Shown: positions 2,192 through 60,164, numbered from the stretch's first letter. The stretch is 64,000 nt of DNA from Candidatus Merdivicinus excrementipullorum (GCA_018716725.1 DVJP01000030.1:17407-81406), one strand, 5' to 3'. Notes: generated from the letters alone by a model not told the origin. A program made the numbers and translations.

Positions 2192-2450
2192 AAATTGAAA
2201 GCTTTACTCAATTTTTCTCGAAAAATTGCAGGGGTAGATGTTGTGAGCAAGCTCACAACGGACAGAGTCCCTCCTCGCTTTCCGCAGAAAGCGAAATCCA
2301 ACCCATTCGCGCCTTGGGCGCGAAACATAAAAGAAAAGCGGAGCTATGAACTTATGGTTCATGGCGTGCAGGCTCGCCGCGAATGTTCGTCGTCAAGTGA
2401 ACTTGACGACACGATTCTGATTTTGCGTAGCAAAATCAAATTTTAGAATC
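2192..2450 (+). repeat. hairpin-mosaic intergenic element, copy A
   Basis: Chain of short perfect palindromes (2241-2258, 2275-2294, 2308-2322, 2344-2364, 2389-2410, 2419-2437). Modules are shared with 36631-36715 and 54798-54819. Confidence 0.75.
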
Positions 2451-12550: not shown

Positions 12551-12626
12551 CTGGGTGTGGCGCAGATGGTAGCGCGCTACCTTGGGGTGGTAGAGGCCGC
12601 TGGTTCAAATCCAGTCACTCAGACCA
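12551..12626 (+). tRNA. tRNA-Pro (anticodon GGG), CCA encoded
   Basis: Hand-folded cloverleaf: acceptor CTGGGTG/CACTCAG with a C1:G72 pair, D arm GCGC..GCGC, anticodon stem CTACC/GGTAG with loop TTGGGGT, T arm GCTGG-TTCAAAT-CCAGT, then A73-CCA. Confidence 0.9.
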
Positions 12627-12755
12627 GGCGGCGAATCGCCGCAGATAAACGCGCACTCACGTTTCGTGGGTGCGTTTTGTTTTTATCCCGCGAAGGGACA
12701 AGGATAAATTCGGTGGATGTACGGCCTGGAGCAGAACGCGCTCCGGGTCTTTTAC
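12623..12755 (+). repeat. tRNA 3'-flank direct repeat, copy 1 (includes terminator)
   Basis: About 130 nt, near-identical to 12812-12940; starts within the tRNA ACCA end. Confidence 0.85.
12651..12685 (+). terminator. rho-independent terminator after tRNA-Pro
   Basis: Stem CGCACTCAC/GTGGGTGCG followed by TTTTGTTTTT. Confidence 0.75.
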
Positions 12756-12811
12756 TTTGTTCTGCGTGAGTGTCCCGCGCTGATAAGGGGTCTCTTTTAT
12801 GAGGCCCCGCA

Positions 12812-12940
12812 CCAGGCGGCGAATCGCCGCAGATAAACGCGCACTCACGTTTCGTGGGTGCGTTTTGTTTTTATCCCGCCAAGGGACAAGGATAAGTTCA
12901 GTGAATGTATCCTGGAGCAGAACGCGCTTTAGGTCTTTTC
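12812..12940 (+). repeat. tRNA 3'-flank direct repeat, copy 2 (second copy of the terminator at 12840-12874)
   Basis: Starts with ACCAGGCGGCGAATCGCCGCAGATAAACGCGCACTCACG. It shows only a few substitutions and a short indel relative to copy 1. Confidence 0.85.
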
Positions 12941-34179: not shown

Positions 34180-34189
34180 GCAAGTGTAG

Positions 34190-34270
34190 TCTTCCGTGCG
34201 ACTGACGGGTTTGTGGAGTCCACCACATGGGAACACGGAAATGTAGATTTTTGCCGACCGTCTGGGCAGC
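34190..34270 (+). promoter_or_regulatory. ZTP (pfl-motif) riboswitch aptamer
   Basis: P1 is TTCCGTG/CACGGAA. The CGACTGACGG core, the GTGGAGTCCAC hairpin and the 3' CCGACCGTCTGGGCA sub-domain are present. The pseudoknot GACGG:CCGTC carries a compensated G-C to A-U change relative to the consensus as I recall it. Confidence 0.75.
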
Positions 34271-34299
34271 CTTGGAAGCAGGGCTGCCCTTTTTGTTTT
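34264..34299 (+). terminator. riboswitch expression-platform terminator
   Basis: GGGCAGCC/GGCTGCCC stem followed by TTTTTGTTTT. The 5' arm overlaps the conserved CUGGGCA. Confidence 0.7.
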
Positions 34300-36576: not shown

Positions 36577-37036
36577 AGCGGATGTAGAAATCCGCCTCTA
36601 CAAATTGAAATGTAACGAGAGAGAAATATGAAAAGTTTTACTCGATTTTTTTCAAAAAATCGCAAGGGTGAAGGGGACAGAGTCCCATTCTCGCACTCCG
36701 CAGAGTGCGAAATCTCCTATGATACAAAAGATCAGGAGGGGAGGCCAAATAGTCCAGTGGACTGTTTGGCCGTGGGGAACCCTATCAAGGGGTTCCCCAA
36801 AATAAATCGGCAAATCTACCGTGCAAAACAATTCACTGGATTGTTTTGCAGAGAATACTCCGGATACGGTCGGACGGCTTACGCCGTTTGACAAATCCCA
36901 GGCGTGGATTTTTCAAACTTTTTTCTGCGCTTTTTATCTTGGAGATTTCGTTTTCTGCGGAAAACGACCGAGGGCGCTGCCCTCTGGACACCCGCCACCT
37001 TTTGAAAAAGGTGGACGAAAACTTTTGATTTTTCTC
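36577..37036 (+). repeat. hairpin-mosaic intergenic element, copy B (begins with an inverted REP-like unit)
   Basis: 36631-36715 is homologous to copy A, and 36818-37036 is homologous to 57412-57627. Many perfect hairpins. Confidence 0.8.
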
Positions 37037-51199: not shown

Positions 51200-51226
51200 T
51201 GTAGGGGACGGTGCCCACATCGTCCC
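51200..51226 (+). repeat. REP-like hairpin (TGTAG-stem-CCCA loop-stem)
   Basis: tgtaGGGGACGGTGcccaCATCGTCCC. Confidence 0.7.
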
Positions 51227-52061: not shown

Positions 52062-52207
52062 ACGGCCGCGGCGAATTGCCGCGGGGCCTCCCCATTTGAA
52101 CGCAAAAGCGGGAATAACTTTTACAGCGGCGCAACTTGTTTGCGCCAGCCGAAGCTTAACGCGGGGTACAATGGCCGCGTCGTCTTATCAGCGGCGATTC
52201 GCCGCTA
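52062..52207 (+). repeat. copy of the ~120-bp hairpin unit also found in tandem at 54.7-54.95 kb
   Basis: Shares GGCGCAACTTGTTTGCGCCAGCCGAAGCTTAACGCGGGGTACAA with 54742-54785. Runs up to the HD gene stop codon. Confidence 0.75.
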
Positions 52208-54220: not shown

Positions 54221-54247
54221 TGTAGGGGACGACGCCCACATCGTCCC
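54221..54247 (+). repeat. REP-like hairpin
   Basis: tgtaGGGGACGACGcccaCATCGTCCC. Confidence 0.7.
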
Positions 54248-54296: not shown

Positions 54297-54572
54297 GTGG
54301 TTTGCCAGAAACGTTCCCGTGTTTTATGCGGGCGGAGAAACCCGGCTCTGCTGGCGTGCCGCCTATGCGGCGGGGCAGAGAACGGCAAAAGGGTTAGGTT
54401 TTGCGCAGCACCCCATCTTTTTTTGCGCGAAAAAAGATGGGGAAGAAAAACGCGCCGGGGCAAGCCCCTGGACCCCACGCCGCGGCCGCATACCACCAGA
54501 TGCGTATTGGTTGTACAACTTTTAGGAAAGGCATCGTGGCGGGATTTTATAATTCGCTAGTATCTAGTATAT

Positions 54573-54657
54573 TGTAGGGGGCGATGCCCACATCGCCCCG
54601 CAATTATCGAAAATGATTGTATAGAACTGCGGGCGGATGTGGGCATCCGCCCCTACA
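54573..54657. repeat. BIME-like pair: two REP-like hairpins in inverted orientation separated by ~30 nt
   Basis: 54573-54600 is tgtagGGGGCGATGcccaCATCGCCCC. 54631-54657 is GGGCGGATGtgggCATCCGCCCctaca. Confidence 0.75.
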
Positions 54658-54699
54658 AATGCGTTGTTCGCTTGATAGTACAAAAATGAAGGGGCGGGA

Positions 54700-54950
54700 C
54701 TTCCCCGTTTTAACCGTAGAAGCGGGGAAATCTTTCACAGGGGCGCAACTTGTTTGCGCCAGCCGAAGCCTAACGCGGGGTACAACAGCCGCGGCGCGTC
54801 GTCAAGCTAACTTGACGACAAGCGGCGGGGCTTCCCCGTTTTAACCGTAGAAGCGGGGAAATCTTTTCCAGAGGCGTGACTTGTTCACGCCAATCGAAGC
54901 TTGTTGCGCGGCAGAACGGCCGCGTCGACTTAGCAGCGGGGCTTCCCCGC
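54700..54950 (+). repeat. tandem array (two units plus a partial third) of a ~110-130-bp multi-hairpin unit
   Basis: CTTCCCCGTTTTAACCGTAGAAGCGGGGAAATCTTT recurs at 54700 and 54831, with a partial copy at 54942. The internal hairpin is GGCGCAA-cttgt-TTGCGCC in one unit and GGCGTGA-cttgt-TCACGCC in the other. Confidence 0.8.
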
Positions 54951-55167: not shown

Positions 55168-56154
55168 GTGAAAAAAGCCGTGATATTTTCCGCCGCGGTA
55201 CTTGCGGCGTTTATTGGAGCATGGCTGATTTCCGGCGGGAAACCGCCGGAAGTGCAGCTGGTTTCTATGAAAGAGCTGGCCTATACCGAAACTGTTTCCG
55301 TGTCCGGGGTTGTGGAATCGCCAAATCAAAGTGAGCTGAACCTGGACTATCCGGTGGTCCCTGAAAAAGTCCTGGTAAAAGAGGGGGACTCCGTGTCTTA
55401 CGGCGATCCCATCGCTTTGGTGGACAAGGAAGCAACCATCCGGGCGGCGGCCGGATTTGCGGCGCAGTTTACGGAAGAACTGCCGGACGGCGTGTCAGAT
55501 AAGGTGAAAGCGGCCTTTTCCGCCATCAGCGGGGAGCTTGCCCAGAATATGGACGCCCTGCCGGAAACCATTTCCGCCCCCATGACCGGCGTCGTTACCT
55601 CCCTGTCTCTGACAGCCGGGGAACTGTTCCTGCCCACTGGGCCGGCCGCCGCCGTTTCCACAGTGGACACCCTCCAGCTGCGGCTTTATGTGCCGGAATC
55701 CCAAGTGAACCTCTTAAAAACCGGGGAAACTTTTACCTTTACGGTCCCCGCTGTCCAGGACGGCCTGTTTGAAGCCCATATCACCCGGTTCAGCCCCTCC
55801 GCCTATCAGAAGCTGGACGGGATGTCCTACGAAACCGTGGTGGACGCGGTGGCCAAGGTGGAGGACACCTTTAACGCGCTGCGCCCCGGCTACACCGTCC
55901 AGGCGGAACTGCCCGCCGGGGAGGAGGAAACCCTCTGGCTCCTGCCCTACGAGGCGGTGGCCCAGGACGAAAACGGCCAGGAATATGTGTATGTCTGCCG
56001 GGAGGGAGAGATTTCCCGCCGGGATGTGGAAACCGGCCGGGAACTGTCCACCTCCATCCAGATTGTAAGCGGCTTGGGCCGTTATGAGAAGGTAGTTTTG
56101 GACGCAGAGACCCTGGAAAAGGATGCCGGAGGGGATGAACCATGGAGTTTTTGA
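55168..56154 (+). CDS. membrane-fusion (HlyD/RND adaptor family) protein
   Basis: GTG start follows a GAGGAGG RBS. N-terminal TM plus barrel-sandwich hybrid and beta-barrel regions. Confidence 0.75.
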   Translation: MKKAVIFSAAVLAAFIGAWLISGGKPPEVQLVSMKELAYTETVSVSGVVESPNQSELNLDYPVVPEKVLVKEGDSVSYGDPIALVDKEATIRAAAGFAAQFTEELPDGVSDKVKAAFSAISGELAQNMDALPETISAPMTGVVTSLSLTAGELFLPTGPAAAVSTVDTLQLRLYVPESQVNLLKTGETFTFTVPAVQDGLFEAHITRFSPSAYQKLDGMSYETVVDAVAKVEDTFNALRPGYTVQAELPAGEEETLWLLPYEAVAQDENGQEYVYVCREGEISRRDVETGRELSTSIQIVSGLGRYEKVVLDAETLEKDAGGDEPWSF

Positions 56155-57302
56155 AAAACGCCTGGCGGAATACCGGCCGTCGGCCTGCCCGGTCCCTGCT
56201 TACCATTCTGAGCATCGCCATCGGGGCCTTTTCGGTGATGCTCATTGGCGCGGTGGGGTTAATCGGACAGCAGGCCGTTGCCAGCGAATTGGCGGGCTTA
56301 GGCCTTCAGGGATTGATGGTCAGCGGGGAGGACCGGCCCTTGACGGAGGAGGTCCTGACAGAGACCTCCCAGGAGCCTTCTGTGGCCGGGGCCACCCCTT
56401 TTTTGGTGGAATACACGGACATCCGCGCCCGGGGAGAAAAGCGGAAAGCCGCCGTGTGGGGCGTTGATTCCAGCGTGGGCCAGGTCATTTCCATGGAGCT
56501 TCAATACGGCCGGGAGATCACCCCGGCGGACGTCCGCAGCGGCGCCCATGTCTGCCTTGTAGAGGAAAATCTGGCCATGGAGATTTTCCACCGGGAAAAC
56601 GCCGTGGGAAAGACCCTGACGGTGACTTTGAACGGGGCGGAGGAGAAATTTACCATTGTGGGCGTAATGGAAACCGGCGGCGCGCTGCTGCAAGGCATGA
56701 TGGGAGACGGCGTGCCGTTATTTGCCTACCTGCCCTATACCGTCCAACAAGACTGCACCGGCCGGGAGGATTTTGACCGGATTGCCGTCAAACTGAAGCA
56801 GGGGGTGGAACCGGAGGACGCAAAACGTCTCTTATCCCGGCAGCTTGGCGGGGAGGAGGCGGTGAAGGTGGAGAATATGAACCGCTATGCCGGGACGGTC
56901 CAGCAGGTTTTAAGCATCGTATCCTTGGTGCTGGCGGCCATTGCGGGCATCAGCCTCCTGGTGGCCTGCCTGTCCGTCATGACCACCATGCTCTGTTCAG
57001 TGGGGGAGCGGACCCGGGAAATCGGCATCAAAAAAAGCATTGGCGCTTCCCCGCAGATGATTGTGTGGGAATTCTTGCTGGAAGCGGCCCTGCTGAGCCT
57101 GGCAGGAGGACTGGCGGGAATTTTGGCCGGCGCTTTGATGGGATGGGCCGGCTGTCTGGCCTTAGGGATTCCGTACCTCTTCCCGGGAAATTTGGCTTTG
57201 GCCTGCGCCCTGGTTTCCCTTTTGGCCGGGACGGCTTTTGGGGCGTATCCCGCCCGGAAAGCGGCGAAGCTCAAGCCGGCGGACGCCTTGCGGACAGAAT
57301 AA
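56142..57302 (+). CDS. MacB-type ABC transporter permease (FtsX domain), no cognate ATPase adjacent
   Basis: 386 aa: TM1, MacB-type periplasmic domain, then three TMs with an FtsX signature. Confidence 0.85.
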   Translation: MEFLKNAWRNTGRRPARSLLTILSIAIGAFSVMLIGAVGLIGQQAVASELAGLGLQGLMVSGEDRPLTEEVLTETSQEPSVAGATPFLVEYTDIRARGEKRKAAVWGVDSSVGQVISMELQYGREITPADVRSGAHVCLVEENLAMEIFHRENAVGKTLTVTLNGAEEKFTIVGVMETGGALLQGMMGDGVPLFAYLPYTVQQDCTGREDFDRIAVKLKQGVEPEDAKRLLSRQLGGEEAVKVENMNRYAGTVQQVLSIVSLVLAAIAGISLLVACLSVMTTMLCSVGERTREIGIKKSIGASPQMIVWEFLLEAALLSLAGGLAGILAGALMGWAGCLALGIPYLFPGNLALACALVSLLAGTAFGAYPARKAAKLKPADALRTE

Positions 57303-57306
57303 AAAA

Positions 57307-57336
57307 TGCCGCCGGGGCAGCTTACTCCGGCGGCGT
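57307..57336. repeat. 30-bp direct repeat, copy 1 (terminator hairpin preceded by an A-run)
   Basis: TGCCGCCGGGGCAGCTTACTCCGGCGGCGT, identical to 57660-57689. Confidence 0.95.
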
Positions 57337-57659
57337 AATTTGGCTAACCAGTATCATTTGTGCAGCAAGGCGCACAAAGAGTTTTTCGATTTGCCGCAAG
57401 AATCACCACTTACCGTGCCAAACAATTCACTGGATTGTTTGGCAAAGAAGGATTCGGATGCGGTCGGACGGCTGTGCCGTTCGATACACCCCTTGCGGGG
57501 GTTTATCGAGCTGTTCCTGCGCTTTATGTCTTGGAGATTTCGTTTCCTGCGGGAAACGAGGAAGGGACTCTGTCCCCTCCACCCCTGCAAGCTTTTGAAA
57601 AAGCTTGACCAAAACTTTTATTTTATCTTTTGCAGTTATGTTTATTAATCATTATTCTG
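57337..57659 (+). repeat. hairpin-mosaic intergenic element, copy C (323 bp)
   Basis: 57412-57627 is homologous to 36818-37036 with stem covariation. Bracketed by the 30-bp direct repeat. Confidence 0.85.
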
Positions 57660-57694
57660 TGCCGCCGGGGCAGCTTACTCCGGCGGCGTTTTTA
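57660..57694. terminator. 30-bp direct repeat, copy 2, followed by a T-run (functional half of the original bidirectional terminator)
   Basis: GCCGCCGG-loop-CCGGCGGC followed by TTTTT. Confidence 0.8.
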
Positions 57695-57703
57695 TAGAGC
57701 AAA

Positions 57704-58375
57704 TTAAGAAATAAAAGGATTCGTGCGGTTTTTCATCAGCTGGGATTTCAGCACGCCGCCAATCAGCAGCCCGCCGACGGCGGTGATGATGATTTCCGGC
57801 ACCATATACAGGCCGTTGTAAATTAAGGAATACACTGCGGACAGGGCGTTCCCGTGGAAGGTTTCCAAAAACCACCCGCCCCAGGGCACCTGATCTCCGA
57901 AGAACCATTCCGCGTAGCTGGAAAACAGGAAGAATCCGGAGAGAAAATGGCAGAGGTACCGGCCAAGCAGTCCGATTACCGCCCCAAGGGCCAAGGCAGC
58001 CGGAACCTTTTTGACAAATTTGGGGGCAAATCCCGCCAGCCCGATGGCCGCGAAAGCAAGGATGTAGTCTAACAGCATGACCCAGAAAAAGGTAGTCAAG
58101 CCGCCGTTGGATTCAATCATGGCGGCCAAGCCTCCGGCACGCCCGCCGGAAATCAGCATGGTGATAAGGCCGTGGACCACCCCGGCCAAGGAACCCCATG
58201 CAGGGCCGTATTTGTAAGCGATGACGACCAGGGGAAGCATGGAACAGAGGGTGACGGACCCGCCGTACAGCCAGGTGGCGTCAAATTTTAAAAAGGTGTC
58301 AATCAGGATGCCGATAGCCAGCAGGATACCGCTTTCCGTTAAACGGAGGATTTTTTGGTTTTGATTAGTTTGCAT
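57704..58375 (-). CDS. thiT: ECF-transporter S component, thiamine-specific (ThiT-like)
   Basis: Six-TM S-component pattern, preceded by a TPP riboswitch. Confidence 0.75.
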   Translation of the reverse strand: MQTNQNQKILRLTESGILLAIGILIDTFLKFDATWLYGGSVTLCSMLPLVVIAYKYGPAWGSLAGVVHGLITMLISGGRAGGLAAMIESNGGLTTFFWVMLLDYILAFAAIGLAGFAPKFVKKVPAALALGAVIGLLGRYLCHFLSGFFLFSSYAEWFFGDQVPWGGWFLETFHGNALSAVYSLIYNGLYMVPEIIITAVGGLLIGGVLKSQLMKNRTNPFIS

Positions 58376-58426
58376 AAAAAACGTCCTTTGACAGTTATTT
58401 CAGGGGCTGTTTCCCTGACGGCTAAG

Positions 58427-58453
58427 AAAAAAGCCGCAGGGCAACCCCACGGC
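58427..58453 (-). terminator. TPP riboswitch expression-platform terminator
   Basis: On the minus strand: GCCGTGGGG-ttg-CCCTGCGGC followed by TTTTTT. Confidence 0.7.
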
Positions 58454-58469
58454 CGGAATTTGTCTGTTA

Positions 58470-58556
58470 CAAATCTTCCTTCGGTGGGATTATCCACACA
58501 GGTTCGAGGGTTGAAGCGCGCTTCTCTCAGCCGGGTTTTCACCGGCACCCCTGATT
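58470..58556 (-). promoter_or_regulatory. TPP (THI-box) riboswitch aptamer
   Basis: The minus strand reads GGGGTGCCGGTGAAAACCCGGCTGAGAGAAGCGCGCTTCAACCCTCGAACCTGTGTGGATAATCCCACCGAAGGAAG. The CTGAGA and ACCTG..GGATAAT..CC elements are conserved. Confidence 0.85.
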
Positions 58557-58589
58557 CGACATTTATTTTAACATAAATTTTACATTTCG

Positions 58590-60164
58590 TCAATCCCTAG
58601 GCCCATTTTCCAGGATAAATTTAGCCACCCGCAGGCCGTCTACGGCGGCGCTCATAATCCCTCCCGCGTATCCGGCTCCTTCCCCGCAGGGATAAAGCCC
58701 TTTGACGGATATGGAGTTAAAATCTTCCCCCCGGCTGATGCGGATGGGGCTGGAGGTGCGGGTTTCCGGCCCGGTGAGGACAGCGTCCGCCTCGGCGAAG
58801 CCGCGGAGCTTCCGGTCAAAAAGCCGAAGCCCGTCCCGCATCATCCCGGTAATCTGCCGGGGAAAGAGCTTGTCAAAATCCACCGGCGCAAGGCCCAGGG
58901 CGTAGCTGGGCTGCACCCGGTTTAAGGAAAGGCCGGGTTTCCCCTCCAAGAAATTCCCGGCCGTTGCGCCGCAGGCCCGGTAGTTTTCCCCGGCCAGCAG
59001 GAAAGCCCGGTGTTCCAGCTGCTCCTGGAATTCCAGCCCGGCGAAAATGCCGCTGCCAAAATCCGAGGAATCCACCGACACCACCAAAGCGGCGTTGGCG
59101 TTTTCCTTGTCCCGTTTATATTCGCTCATGCCGTTGGTCACCACCTGCCCTAGTCCCGATGCGGCGGGAACCACTGTGCCGCCGGGGCACATGCAGAAGG
59201 TGTACACGGCTTTTTCCCCCTGCCGGTGGGAAAGCTGGTATTCCCCGGGGGGCAGATCCGGATGCCCGGCCATTTTGCCGTAAAGCCCCCGGTCAATCCA
59301 CTCCTGCCGGTGTTCAATCCGCGCCCCCACGGAAAAGGGTTTGGATTCCATGAAAACGCCGTGCCGGGCCAGCATCCGGAAGGTATCCCGGGCGCTGTGG
59401 CCCACGGCCAAAATTAAATGGGAAACCGCCAAAGGCTCACCGTTGACAGAAATGCCGGTGAGCTTTCCGTTTTGGACGGAAATCCCGGTAAGCTGGGTGT
59501 GGAACCGCACATCCCCGCCGTTTTGGAGGATTTCCTGCCGGATGGACCGGACAACTTGCCGCAGCCGGTCGGTGCCGATATGAGGCTTGGCCTTTTTCAG
59601 GGTTTCCATGGGCGCCCCGTGGCGGCCGAACTGCTCTAAGACATAAGAACACAAGGGGTCGTTGATCCGGGTGGTCAGCTTCCCGTCGGAAAAGGTGCCT
59701 GCGCCGCCTTCTCCGAACTGGACGTTGCAGTTTTCGTCCAGCTGGCCCCTGGCCCAGAAGTTTTCCACTGCCTGCACCCGTTCTTCCACCGGGCCGCCCC
59801 GTTCCAGGACGATGACCGGAACCCCGTGCCGGGCTAAAAGGCTTGCGGCGAACATCCCCGCAGGGCCGAAGCCGGCGATTGCCACCAGCCCTTCCGGCTT
59901 GGAGCCGGGACGGACGGAAAAGGGCTGATCCTCCTGCCAGCGGACGCCGTTTTTGCTTAAGAAGGCTTCCTCGCCGCCGTCAAGGCGCACCACCACTGTA
60001 TTGACTTTGTGAATATCCTGCTGCTTCCGGGCGTCCAGGGAGGTTTTGGAAACATACGCCTCCCGGACCCGGCTTTTGGGCACGCCCAGCAGCTTGACCG
60101 CCCGGGAAACAGCGGCGTCTTCCGGTTCCCCCAGGCGGGTTTTGATGTTGTTGAGTATCAGCAT
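58590..60164 (-). CDS. FAD-dependent oxidoreductase (COG2509-like)
   Basis: Dinucleotide motif IAGFGPAGMFAA. Length and N-terminal domain are typical of this family. Confidence 0.8.
   Translation of the reverse strand: MLILNNIKTRLGEPEDAAVSRAVKLLGVPKSRVREAYVSKTSLDARKQQDIHKVNTVVVRLDGGEEAFLSKNGVRWQEDQPFSVRPGSKPEGLVAIAGFGPAGMFAASLLARHGVPVIVLERGGPVEERVQAVENFWARGQLDENCNVQFGEGGAGTFSDGKLTTRINDPLCSYVLEQFGRHGAPMETLKKAKPHIGTDRLRQVVRSIRQEILQNGGDVRFHTQLTGISVQNGKLTGISVNGEPLAVSHLILAVGHSARDTFRMLARHGVFMESKPFSVGARIEHRQEWIDRGLYGKMAGHPDLPPGEYQLSHRQGEKAVYTFCMCPGGTVVPAASGLGQVVTNGMSEYKRDKENANAALVVSVDSSDFGSGIFAGLEFQEQLEHRAFLLAGENYRACGATAGNFLEGKPGLSLNRVQPSYALGLAPVDFDKLFPRQITGMMRDGLRLFDRKLRGFAEADAVLTGPETRTSSPIRISRGEDFNSISVKGLYPCGEGAGYAGGIMSAAVDGLRVAKFILENGPRD

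Follow-up and report, generated by a model that had tools for sequence, protein, structure and literature searches.

Duplication of a whole terminator hairpin around a 323-bp mosaic insert and its probable relationship to hairpin-targeting IS1182-family elements

In a 64,000-nucleotide stretch of the genome of Candidatus Merdivicinus excrementipullorum (GCA_018716725.1 DVJP01000030.1:17407-81406; hereafter the window), a 323-nt insert lies between two identical copies of a 30-nt terminator hairpin, in the intergenic region between convergent genes for an FtsX-type permease and the thiamine transporter component ThiT. This raises the question of whether the insert is, or was, a mobile element and, if so, how an entire stem-loop could come to be duplicated around it. 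The 30-mer TGCCGCCGGGGCAGCTTACTCCGGCGGCGT occurs exactly twice in the window, at 57307-57336 and 57660-57689, with 30/30 identity and a spacing of 353 nt, and there is no third copy in the 64 kb even at three mismatches (chance expectation 0). The insert itself occupies 57337-57659, and the filled FtsX-thiT intergenic region measures 401 nt. A preliminary description of this DNA had claimed a perfect 30-bp hairpin duplication bracketing a 323-bp insert between convergent FtsX permease and thiT genes, and the coordinates, the identity of the repeats and the flanking genes, for which open reading frames (ORFs) and Pfam domains agree, all hold. Its account of the flanking runs needs one correction: AAAAAA does precede copy 1, but only four T follow copy 2, so that the T5 run consists of the last base of the repeat (57689) and the four T at 57690-57693. 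The features of the locus are as follows.

56142-57302, + strand: gene for an FtsX/MacB-type ABC permease (ORF of 386 aa; Pfam MacB_PCD and FtsX on an identical protein)
57301-57306: A6 run, 5' half of the original bidirectional terminator and U-tract for thiT (- strand) transcripts
57307-57336: hairpin copy 1, left target-site duplication (stem GCCGCCGG/CCGGCGGC and a few inner pairs)
57660-57689: hairpin copy 2, right target-site duplication (loop ...CTTACT... in every filled strain examined)
57689-57693: T5 run, 3' half of the original bidirectional terminator, providing the U-tract for transcripts of the FtsX operon
57704-58375, - strand: thiT, energy-coupling-factor thiamine transporter S component (ORF; Pfam Thia_YuaJ), convergent with the FtsX gene
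58459-58562: thiamine pyrophosphate (TPP) riboswitch, upstream of thiT

The permease gene is the last gene of a YknX-FtsX operon, and its TAA stop codon (57300-57302) overlaps the A-run. In-silico removal of 57337-57689 yields a continuous A-run/hairpin/T-run, with folding energies of -27.1 kcal/mol (+ strand) and -22.8 kcal/mol (- strand), in agreement with the earlier proposal that this deletion restores a bidirectional terminator. Both this reconstituted site and the natural empty site described below have a GC-rich stem-loop, a U-tract for each strand and convergent 3' ends, as expected of an intrinsic bidirectional terminator. In the present sequence, a hairpin followed by a T-run is found on the + strand at copy 2 only and on the - strand at copy 1 only. 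Judged from this arrangement, each convergent transcript would first meet a hairpin lacking a U-tract and would reach a hairpin with a U-tract only beyond the element, with a presumed effect on termination.

Nine contigs from other samples that encode an identical ThiT or FtsX have the same 401-nt intergenic region, and the 323-nt insert is identical in all ten filled contigs; because all are filled, these contigs are uninformative on mobility. A 1,320-nt contig (L382, from SRR12730735) encodes a ThiT variant (P0001) that is 99% identical to the window protein and has 46 nt between thiT and the FtsX 3' end, where the sequence reads TAA-AAA-TGCCGCCGGGGCAGCTCGCTCCGGCGGCGT-TTTTT, with the same hairpin present once, preceded by an A-run and followed by a T-run. 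The same single-hairpin allele is present in L383 (SRR29134153), a contig spanning YknX, FtsX and thiT whose FtsX variant has 91% amino acid identity to that of the window. In both empty alleles the A-run is A5 and T5 is present. Since their FtsX 3' flank is 88% identical to the window at the nucleotide level and their thiT flank 98%, L382 and L383 represent a separate lineage and not a collapsed assembly of the window allele. The empty site that the preliminary description had pointed to as a check on its claim is thus found in two contigs (46 nt versus 401 nt). As a separate observation, the step from 88% identity on the FtsX side to 98% on the thiT side (compared with window 57000-58700) suggests past recombination, with a boundary at the terminator or close to it.

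A sister species (L384, GCA_054268575.1; FtsX 73% identical) retains the five-gene synteny YknX-FtsX / thiT-FAD-dependent protein-YbbR, and its 38-nt FtsX-thiT gap holds one unrelated terminator and no element. The empty alleles and this outgroup together make the single terminator the ancestral state and the 353 nt, element plus second hairpin, the derived one. The locus is therefore an insertion/deletion polymorphism bounded exactly by the repeat, with its polarity given by the outgroup. The nearest ThiT relatives by sequence (72-87% identical) have other gene neighbours and unrelated simple terminators. A metagenome scan with an exact pattern for the predicted empty site gave 0 matches, a null result without weight, since even the filled site was met just once in that collection (L176) and the real empty allele has A5 rather than A6. 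The proposal that the element is or was mobile is supported by the empty alleles and the outgroup, and by the recurrence of related elements described below.

The loops of the two hairpin copies record some later history. The empty allele has the loop ...CTCGCT.... Three filled strains (L007, L009 and L176) have ...CTCGCT... in copy 1 and ...CTTACT... in copy 2, with no other difference from the window's intergenic sequence, while in the window and in seven further contigs both copies read ...CTTACT.... The simplest order of events would be that the insertion duplicated the ancestral hairpin, that copy 2 then changed at two adjacent bases, and that copy 2 subsequently converted copy 1 in the window's line. 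Because L007, L009 and L176 keep the ancestral loop in copy 1, the 30/30 identity of the copies in the window is probably secondary and not pristine, which also fits the flipped or diverged loops at other insertions.

In other Oscillospirales and in contigs of a viral collection, small elements (99-325 bp) that end in CAGYYTGTCRAWAAAG are flanked immediately on both sides by copies of a local hairpin of 12-28 nt. The ends of this family read 5'-CAGYYTGTCRAWAAAG...CTTTWTYGACARRCTG-3' (also written CAGYYTGTCGAAAAAG, or CAG...CTG). The terminal repeats were defined from L199, which surfaced by chance in the flank of an unrelated match during a metagenome scan with the 21-mer AAACAATTCACTGGATTGTTT; here a perfect 27-nt hairpin, CAGCTTGTCAATAAA...TTTTTCGACAGACTG, the same hairpin and TTTT follow one another, with 27/27 identity between the hairpins, clean inverted termini and an insert of 232 nt. 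The same termini also end elements in L076, L059, L046 (left end), L278, L055, L136, L040, L022 and L038. Bracketing by a hairpin, a different local one each time, was found in L046 (a 28/28 perfect repeat, with the element between convergent genes), L076 (28/28, copy 2 being followed by T6), L199, L278, L055, L136 and L040, so related elements elsewhere do carry the hairpin-sized direct repeats for which the preliminary description had suggested looking. The gap between hairpin and terminus is 0-1 nt in these elements, and a perfect hairpin of at least 7 bp directly abuts 7 of 12 termini versus 0.9% of random positions in the same DNA (p = 5e-12). The target hairpins differ entirely in sequence between insertions.

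Several flanking hairpin pairs have identical stems with loops that are flipped (L040, 3646-3850, and L322) or different (L055, L278 and L304), which suggests template switching or conversion within the palindromes during or after gap repair. Two loci of a Ruminococcus sp. SIG541 metagenome-assembled genome (L076 and L059) carry a 286-nt element, 95% identical between them, at different sites and each abutting a different hairpin, and the element looks recently active in this organism.

A number of other candidates were rejected. The flanking repeats of L053, L152 and L252 are members of multi-copy REP-like families; L205 is a segmental duplication of greater length, and L075 a cyanobacterial tandem array. 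In relatives of the L046 site, one terminator follows the His_Phos gene; since their downstream genes differ, they provide no strict empty site. L232 (9021-10900), from an AT-rich organism, has a 36-nt palindromic, terminator-like sequence repeated exactly at a distance of 1,842 bp, but the one ORF enclosed, of 543 aa, encodes no transposase; a gene cassette that entered with duplication of a terminator is one possibility.

The viral-contig collection was scanned with the terminal repeat, and matches with a partner terminus and a flanking repeat were kept. One of them (L370), 1,525 bp in length, shares the termini, contains an ORF of 473 aa and is bracketed by a perfect palindromic duplication of 40 nt. 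The ORF encodes an IS1182-family transposase, matching the NCBIfam equivalog NF033551 at 399 bits (cutoff 270) and the Pfam domains DUF772 and DDE_Tnp_1_6; no IS30 model is among its NCBIfam matches at E <=0.001. A second element (L322), frameshifted, 1,509 bp long and bracketed by two 23-nt hairpin copies, encodes a homologue with 61-68% amino acid identity to the L370 protein. No other copy of the transposase was seen in the 3 Mb of DNA compared, and a search beside the unpaired termini in L017 and L037 found no transposase. The terminal repeats CAGYYTGTCRAWAAAG are thus common to the small elements of L199, L076, L278, L055 and L136 and to the transposase-bearing L370 and L322, while the window copy has only weak, displaced matches to them. 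Staggered cleavage at the base of an extruded hairpin, as the preliminary description had proposed, would agree with the bracketing of L370 and L322 and with a published model for the IS1182 family, from which we infer the geometry itself.

The window insert contains only short overlapping ORFs on both strands and no transposase gene, and tblastn of the L370 transposase against the 64-kb window gave no match. On either strand, its 323 nt fold into a series of short hairpins (z = -7.3 and -8.4), and it can be divided as follows.

57337-57348: 12 nt, AATTTGGCTAAC, separating hairpin copy 1 from the point where element sequence can first be recognised
57349-57379, + strand: degenerate left end CAGTATC and terminus-proximal hairpin TTTGTGC...GCACAAA, from the alignment to L076
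57411-57628, + strand: central cargo common to other copies in the window (repeat families D4, D5 and D9)
57533-57627, + strand: three-palindrome core, GATTTCG-stem-CTGCGG-stem-CGA, stem 2 GGGAC..GTCCC, stem 3 CAAGCTTTTGAAAAAGCTTG, then ..AAAACTTTT
57627-57640, + strand: possible remnant of the right terminal inverted repeat, CTTTTGCAGTTATG, a weak match to the element family's CTTTTTCGACAGRCTG
57641-57659: AT-rich 19-nt tail, TTTATTAATCATTATTCTG, directly abutting hairpin copy 2; its reverse complement begins CAG

The left part (57349-57379) shows collinearity with the elements of L076 and L059 at their left end (CAGTCTGTCAAAAAGC-ATTTTGTGCCC...GGGCACAAAGG), and the collinearity with L076 extends through the whole insert, from the TTTGTGC..GCACAAA hairpin to an H0-type hairpin, the three-palindrome core and the AT-rich tail. 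The 12 nt at 57337-57348 and the 19 nt at 57641-57659 are without a counterpart in the clean related elements, whose termini abut their hairpins. The cargo holds a hairpin at 57417-57443 with the tip AAACAATTCACTGGATTGTTT, the hairpins TCGGACGGC/GCCGTTCGA and CCCC/GGGG, and the three-palindrome core. Only this central part resembles other sequences in the window, the ends of the insert being unique there, so the label 'mosaic' given to it earlier is fair. The other copies of the cargo in the window are as follows.

36817-37035, + strand: cargo copy, 79% identity to the insert centre over 36817-37032
36608-36737, - strand: cargo copy, 72% identity to the insert centre
2192-2298, - strand: fourth core copy, 66% identity to the insert centre, without flanking duplication
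57533-57627; 36941-37035; 36623-36717 (-); 2207-2301 (-): core positions in the window

The two copies in 36608-37035 form an inverted pair between the genes for a glycyl-radical enzyme and its activase and have no flanking hairpin duplication. The four cargo copies are 66-79% alike, and a duplication is present at one only; the earlier remark that copies A and B lack flanking duplications is correct, since window copies A, B and D are all without any. A pattern for the core, GATTTCG-NNNN-CTGCGG-NNNN-CGA plus two more palindromes, has four matches in the window against 0.15 expected, with stems that differ from copy to copy and are complementary in each.

The explanation that we favour, and hold with good confidence, is that the insert is a decayed, non-autonomous relative, resembling a MITE (miniature inverted-repeat transposable element), of a hairpin-seeking IS1182-family element, and that staggered joining at the feet of the hairpin duplicated the whole stem-loop. 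In the published model, three outcomes are distinguished by where the 3' ends of the element join an extruded cruciform, and joining at the 5' feet duplicates the entire stem-loop (PMC5678879). From this model and the family-level evidence, we infer that an IS1182-type transposase moved the window copy, with the joints at the feet of the stem-loop. The elements of this family would pick DNA hairpins, mostly intrinsic terminators, by recognising structure rather than sequence. In an ancestor of the window's lineage, one of them would have entered the lone bidirectional terminator that separated FtsX from thiT; each of its two 3' ends would have joined a different strand at one foot of the palindrome, the feet lying 30 nt from each other, and repair of the gaps would have copied the whole stem-loop to both sides to give A6-hairpin-[element]-hairpin-T5. 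That the target is chosen as a DNA hairpin and not as a sequence is indicated by the bidirectional terminator hit in the window, by the unrelated sequences of the other target hairpins and by the enrichment of hairpins at termini (7/12 versus 0.9%).

Several observations weigh against this explanation. The termini of the insert are weak compared with the family consensus (about 8/16 at the right end and about 5/16 at the left, where the match starts 12 nt inside), and the terminal repeat has no significant match in the window (10 matches at <=3 mismatches, 5.3 expected). Between the hairpin copies and recognisable element sequence stand 12 unexplained nucleotides at the left end and 19 at the right. 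No IS1182 transposase was seen within the 64-kb window, and both transposase-bearing elements are viral-collection contigs, neither of them from the window's genome. Of the 81 core copies with sufficient flanking sequence, the window's included, clean hairpin duplications were found only at the window, L046 and L076, with flipped or diverged hairpin pairs at L040 and L055; as most core copies are without a detectable duplication, the cargo is older or more widespread than the demonstrable insertions. Finally, IS1272, a well-described hairpin-targeting member of the IS1182 family, deletes part or all of its target stem-loop and does not duplicate it (PMC4923244; PMC5678879).

Some of these points would also fit a different origin, in which the insert was copied in by replication or repair, for example by fork stalling at the hairpin, a template switch to another mosaic locus and return, leaving the hairpin duplication as a by-product of microhomology in the palindrome. 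The lack of convincing terminal inverted repeats in the window copy, the unexplained 12 and 19 nt beside the hairpins and the patchwork nature of the insert (its centre 79% identical to copy B, its ends unique) are all compatible with such an event, and the loop-flipped or diverged pairs of L040, L322 and L055 indicate that template-switch-like events do take place at these palindromes. However, the clean cases elsewhere have defined inverted termini that abut the hairpins at 0-1 nt, those termini are common to transposase-encoding elements with the same bracketing, and at its left end the window copy shows collinearity with an element of this kind (L076). We therefore regard a copy-in origin as unlikely.

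Transposition by another hairpin-duplicating enzyme, either an IS30-family transposase of the IS1630 type or an IS1202-group enzyme with long duplications, is less likely again. The duplications of the IS1202 group are 16-28 bp, and the termini of the window copy are too decayed for an assignment of their own, but the sole transposase found with the family's termini is of the IS1182 type, the TGT...ACA ends of the IS1202 family are not seen here, and no IS30- or IS1202-type gene was met beside such termini in a limited search. The behaviour of IS1630-type elements is the same, but the transposase that accompanies the termini of the CAGYYTGTC family is of the IS1182 type. Hardly credible at all is a scenario in which the filled state is ancestral, as two old terminators under gene conversion, and the single-hairpin alleles arose by precise deletion between the 30-nt repeats: such recombination would give exactly the L382/L383 sequence, and conversion between copies does seem to occur (the copy-2 loop is in both hairpins of the window, whereas L007-type strains differ in copy 1), but the outgroup L384 has the same synteny with one terminator and no element, and the same architecture recurs, with different hairpins, in unrelated genomes, both at related elements and at transposase-bearing insertion sequences (ISs), which independent paired terminators do not explain.

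Insertion of a decayed, IS1182-related element would account for the duplication, and the cargo raises a question of its own. Species-representative genomes were scanned with the core pattern, the metagenome and viral-contig collections being scanned with other patterns. The core was found in at least 120 loci of these genomes, nearly all from Oscillospirales (Oscillospiraceae, Ruminococcus, Butyricicoccus and Acutalibacteraceae), and the matches (L017-L136) are frequently at contig ends. Loops and linkers are invariant, and AAAACTTT follows stem 3. The four free stem positions are fully complementary in 107 of 126 core copies and comprise over 25 distinct stem sequences. When 62 copies were aligned, two-sided changes were seen in 16 of 23 predicted pairs, one-sided changes were almost absent and there were nearly no G-U intermediates, a pattern that fits maintained perfect DNA palindromes better than an RNA helix tolerating G-U. 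Rfam gave no family for the core at its gathering score in the window or in 20 clean-core loci, nor under an E-value threshold (the best sub-threshold match being Clostridiales-2, with 17 bits against 58.6), and since the orientation of the core relative to genes is inconsistent, it is no 5'-untranslated region element.

That the core is kept across Oscillospirales with compensation by Watson-Crick pairs only suggests functional DNA hairpins. We tentatively raise the possibility, though it is more doubtful than not, that the cargo is not junk and that the conserved palindromes and the AAACAATTCACTGGATTGTTT tip are DNA hairpins working in the element's own biology, with nested insertion building the mosaics. 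The palindromes could then be cis-acting sites for a hairpin-recognising transposase, or landing pads that draw further insertions into harmless intergenic DNA, and nested insertion with hairpin duplication would build the 'mosaic' arrays of these genomes.

The 21-mer AAACAATTCACTGGATTGTTT (window 57420-57440 and 36826-36846) is itself the tip of a hairpin with at least 120 exact matches in metagenomes (L137-L256) from rumen, human gut and marine samples. These loci occur across phyla and have very different flanks, and the lower stem co-varies; in L150, L155 and L177 the 21-mer appears in a tRNA-like T-arm context. The core is nearby in only 1 of 128 metagenome matches, so AAACAATTCACTGGATTGTTT is an independent and widespread hairpin tip.

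The window contains further repeats. A second family of GC-rich hairpins, TGTAGGGG(N)...CCCC, is found at 51200-51226, 54221-54247 and 54572-54658 and also in L053 and L152; it is multi-copy in the window and in many Oscillospirales loci, sometimes as inverted pairs (54572-54614 with 54616-54658). A 108-nt unit, itself a further hairpin-rich mosaic, is present three times (52075-52182, 54689-54796 and 54820-54927; 76-81% alike, two of the copies 131 nt apart) in the long non-coding stretch upstream of the YknX-FtsX operon. At 12551-12939, a 99-nt unit occurs twice after tRNA-Pro(GGG) (12623-12721 and 12811-12909); the two units are 96% identical, lie 188 nt apart and each contain a terminator-like hairpin. 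A ZMP/ZTP riboswitch (34188-34274, 62 bits) lies just over 2 kb upstream of the glycyl-radical enzyme gene's 3' end (stop at about 36571).

The class of mechanism proposed here is already known, and its outcome, duplication of a whole hairpin, is that of IS1630 and not the hairpin deletion of IS1272. What the locus adds is a clean natural series of filled, empty and outgroup alleles for a transposable element that reads DNA shape and duplicates a whole terminator hairpin, and an indication that, for IS1182-family elements, duplication of the hairpin target is possible besides its deletion. It also links the abundant 'mosaic' intergenic repeats of gut Oscillospirales to a concrete transposase family. 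Such repeats break short-read assemblies, as the many core matches at contig ends show. Because insertions of this kind split bidirectional terminators, each convergent gene would be expected to gain a structured 3' extension of about 350 nt that is antisense to the other's, and split terminators are a possible source of changes in transcript ends. The hairpin-to-hairpin signature provides a simple rule for annotating these insertions and for locating polymorphic sites in metagenomes.

Among known systems, bacterial MITEs and mosaic repeats (Correia, RUP, BOX, ERIC and REP/BIME) are likewise small, non-coding, multi-copy, intergenic and rich in stem-loops, are frequently beside terminators and are able to alter transcript ends; BOX and BIME also have a modular, mosaic build. 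Typical MITEs, however, have duplications of 2-10 bp, whereas an entire hairpin of 12-40 nt is duplicated here, and REP/BIME elements depend on RAYT tyrosine-HUH enzymes and produce no duplications, unlike the presumed partner here, an IS1182-family DDE transposase. In Cas1 integration, which duplicates CRISPR repeats and also moves casposons, two strand transfers occur at the borders of a sequence of about 30 bp that is often palindromic, and gap repair follows; this geometry is comparable by analogy only, as the enzyme is unrelated and no cas1 or CRISPR context was seen here. Neither a Cas1-type nor a target-primed reverse-transcription origin of the long duplication has a supporting gene or feature.

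The IS1202 group shares long target-site duplications (16-28 bp), but its ends are TGT...ACA, its transposase is Tn7 TnsB-like, and no preference for hairpins or other targets was found for the long-duplication group. Closer in outcome are IS1630 of Mycoplasma fermentans and ISMhom-1, of the IS30 family, which insert into inverted repeats and duplicate them; the duplications measure 16-26 bp, vary in length and have another sequence at each site. The repeats duplicated by IS1630 reportedly derive from terminators, as described in 1999. In contrast to the elements studied here, IS1630 and ISMhom-1 have an IS30 transposase, are autonomous (1.3-1.4 kb), have 27-bp inverted repeats and come from Mollicutes.

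ISfinder reportedly gives direct repeats of 0-60 bp for IS1182. In the literature consulted, no review-level statement on the duplication lengths of this family was found, nor was a paper describing IS1182-derived miniature elements with whole-hairpin duplication. The family is heterogeneous, given that ISPse1 has a 4-bp duplication, and some members target palindromes (Siguier et al. 2015, as cited in PMC4923244 and PMC5678879). Both IS1272 and TnSha1, which derives from it, enter hairpins without specificity for primary sequence; several of these hairpins are confirmed terminators, and the insertions remove part of the hairpin and leave no duplication (PMC4923244; PMC5678879). The elements that share termini with those described here have a transposase of the same family (NF033551) as these staphylococcal elements and, like them, target hairpins, mostly intrinsic terminators, by structure. 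The present case differs from the 'stem-loop replacing' IS1272 in that the whole stem-loop is duplicated, corresponding to 'pathway b' of the published model (PMC5678879), and in that the mobile unit is small, carries no transposase gene and holds a palindrome-rich cargo.

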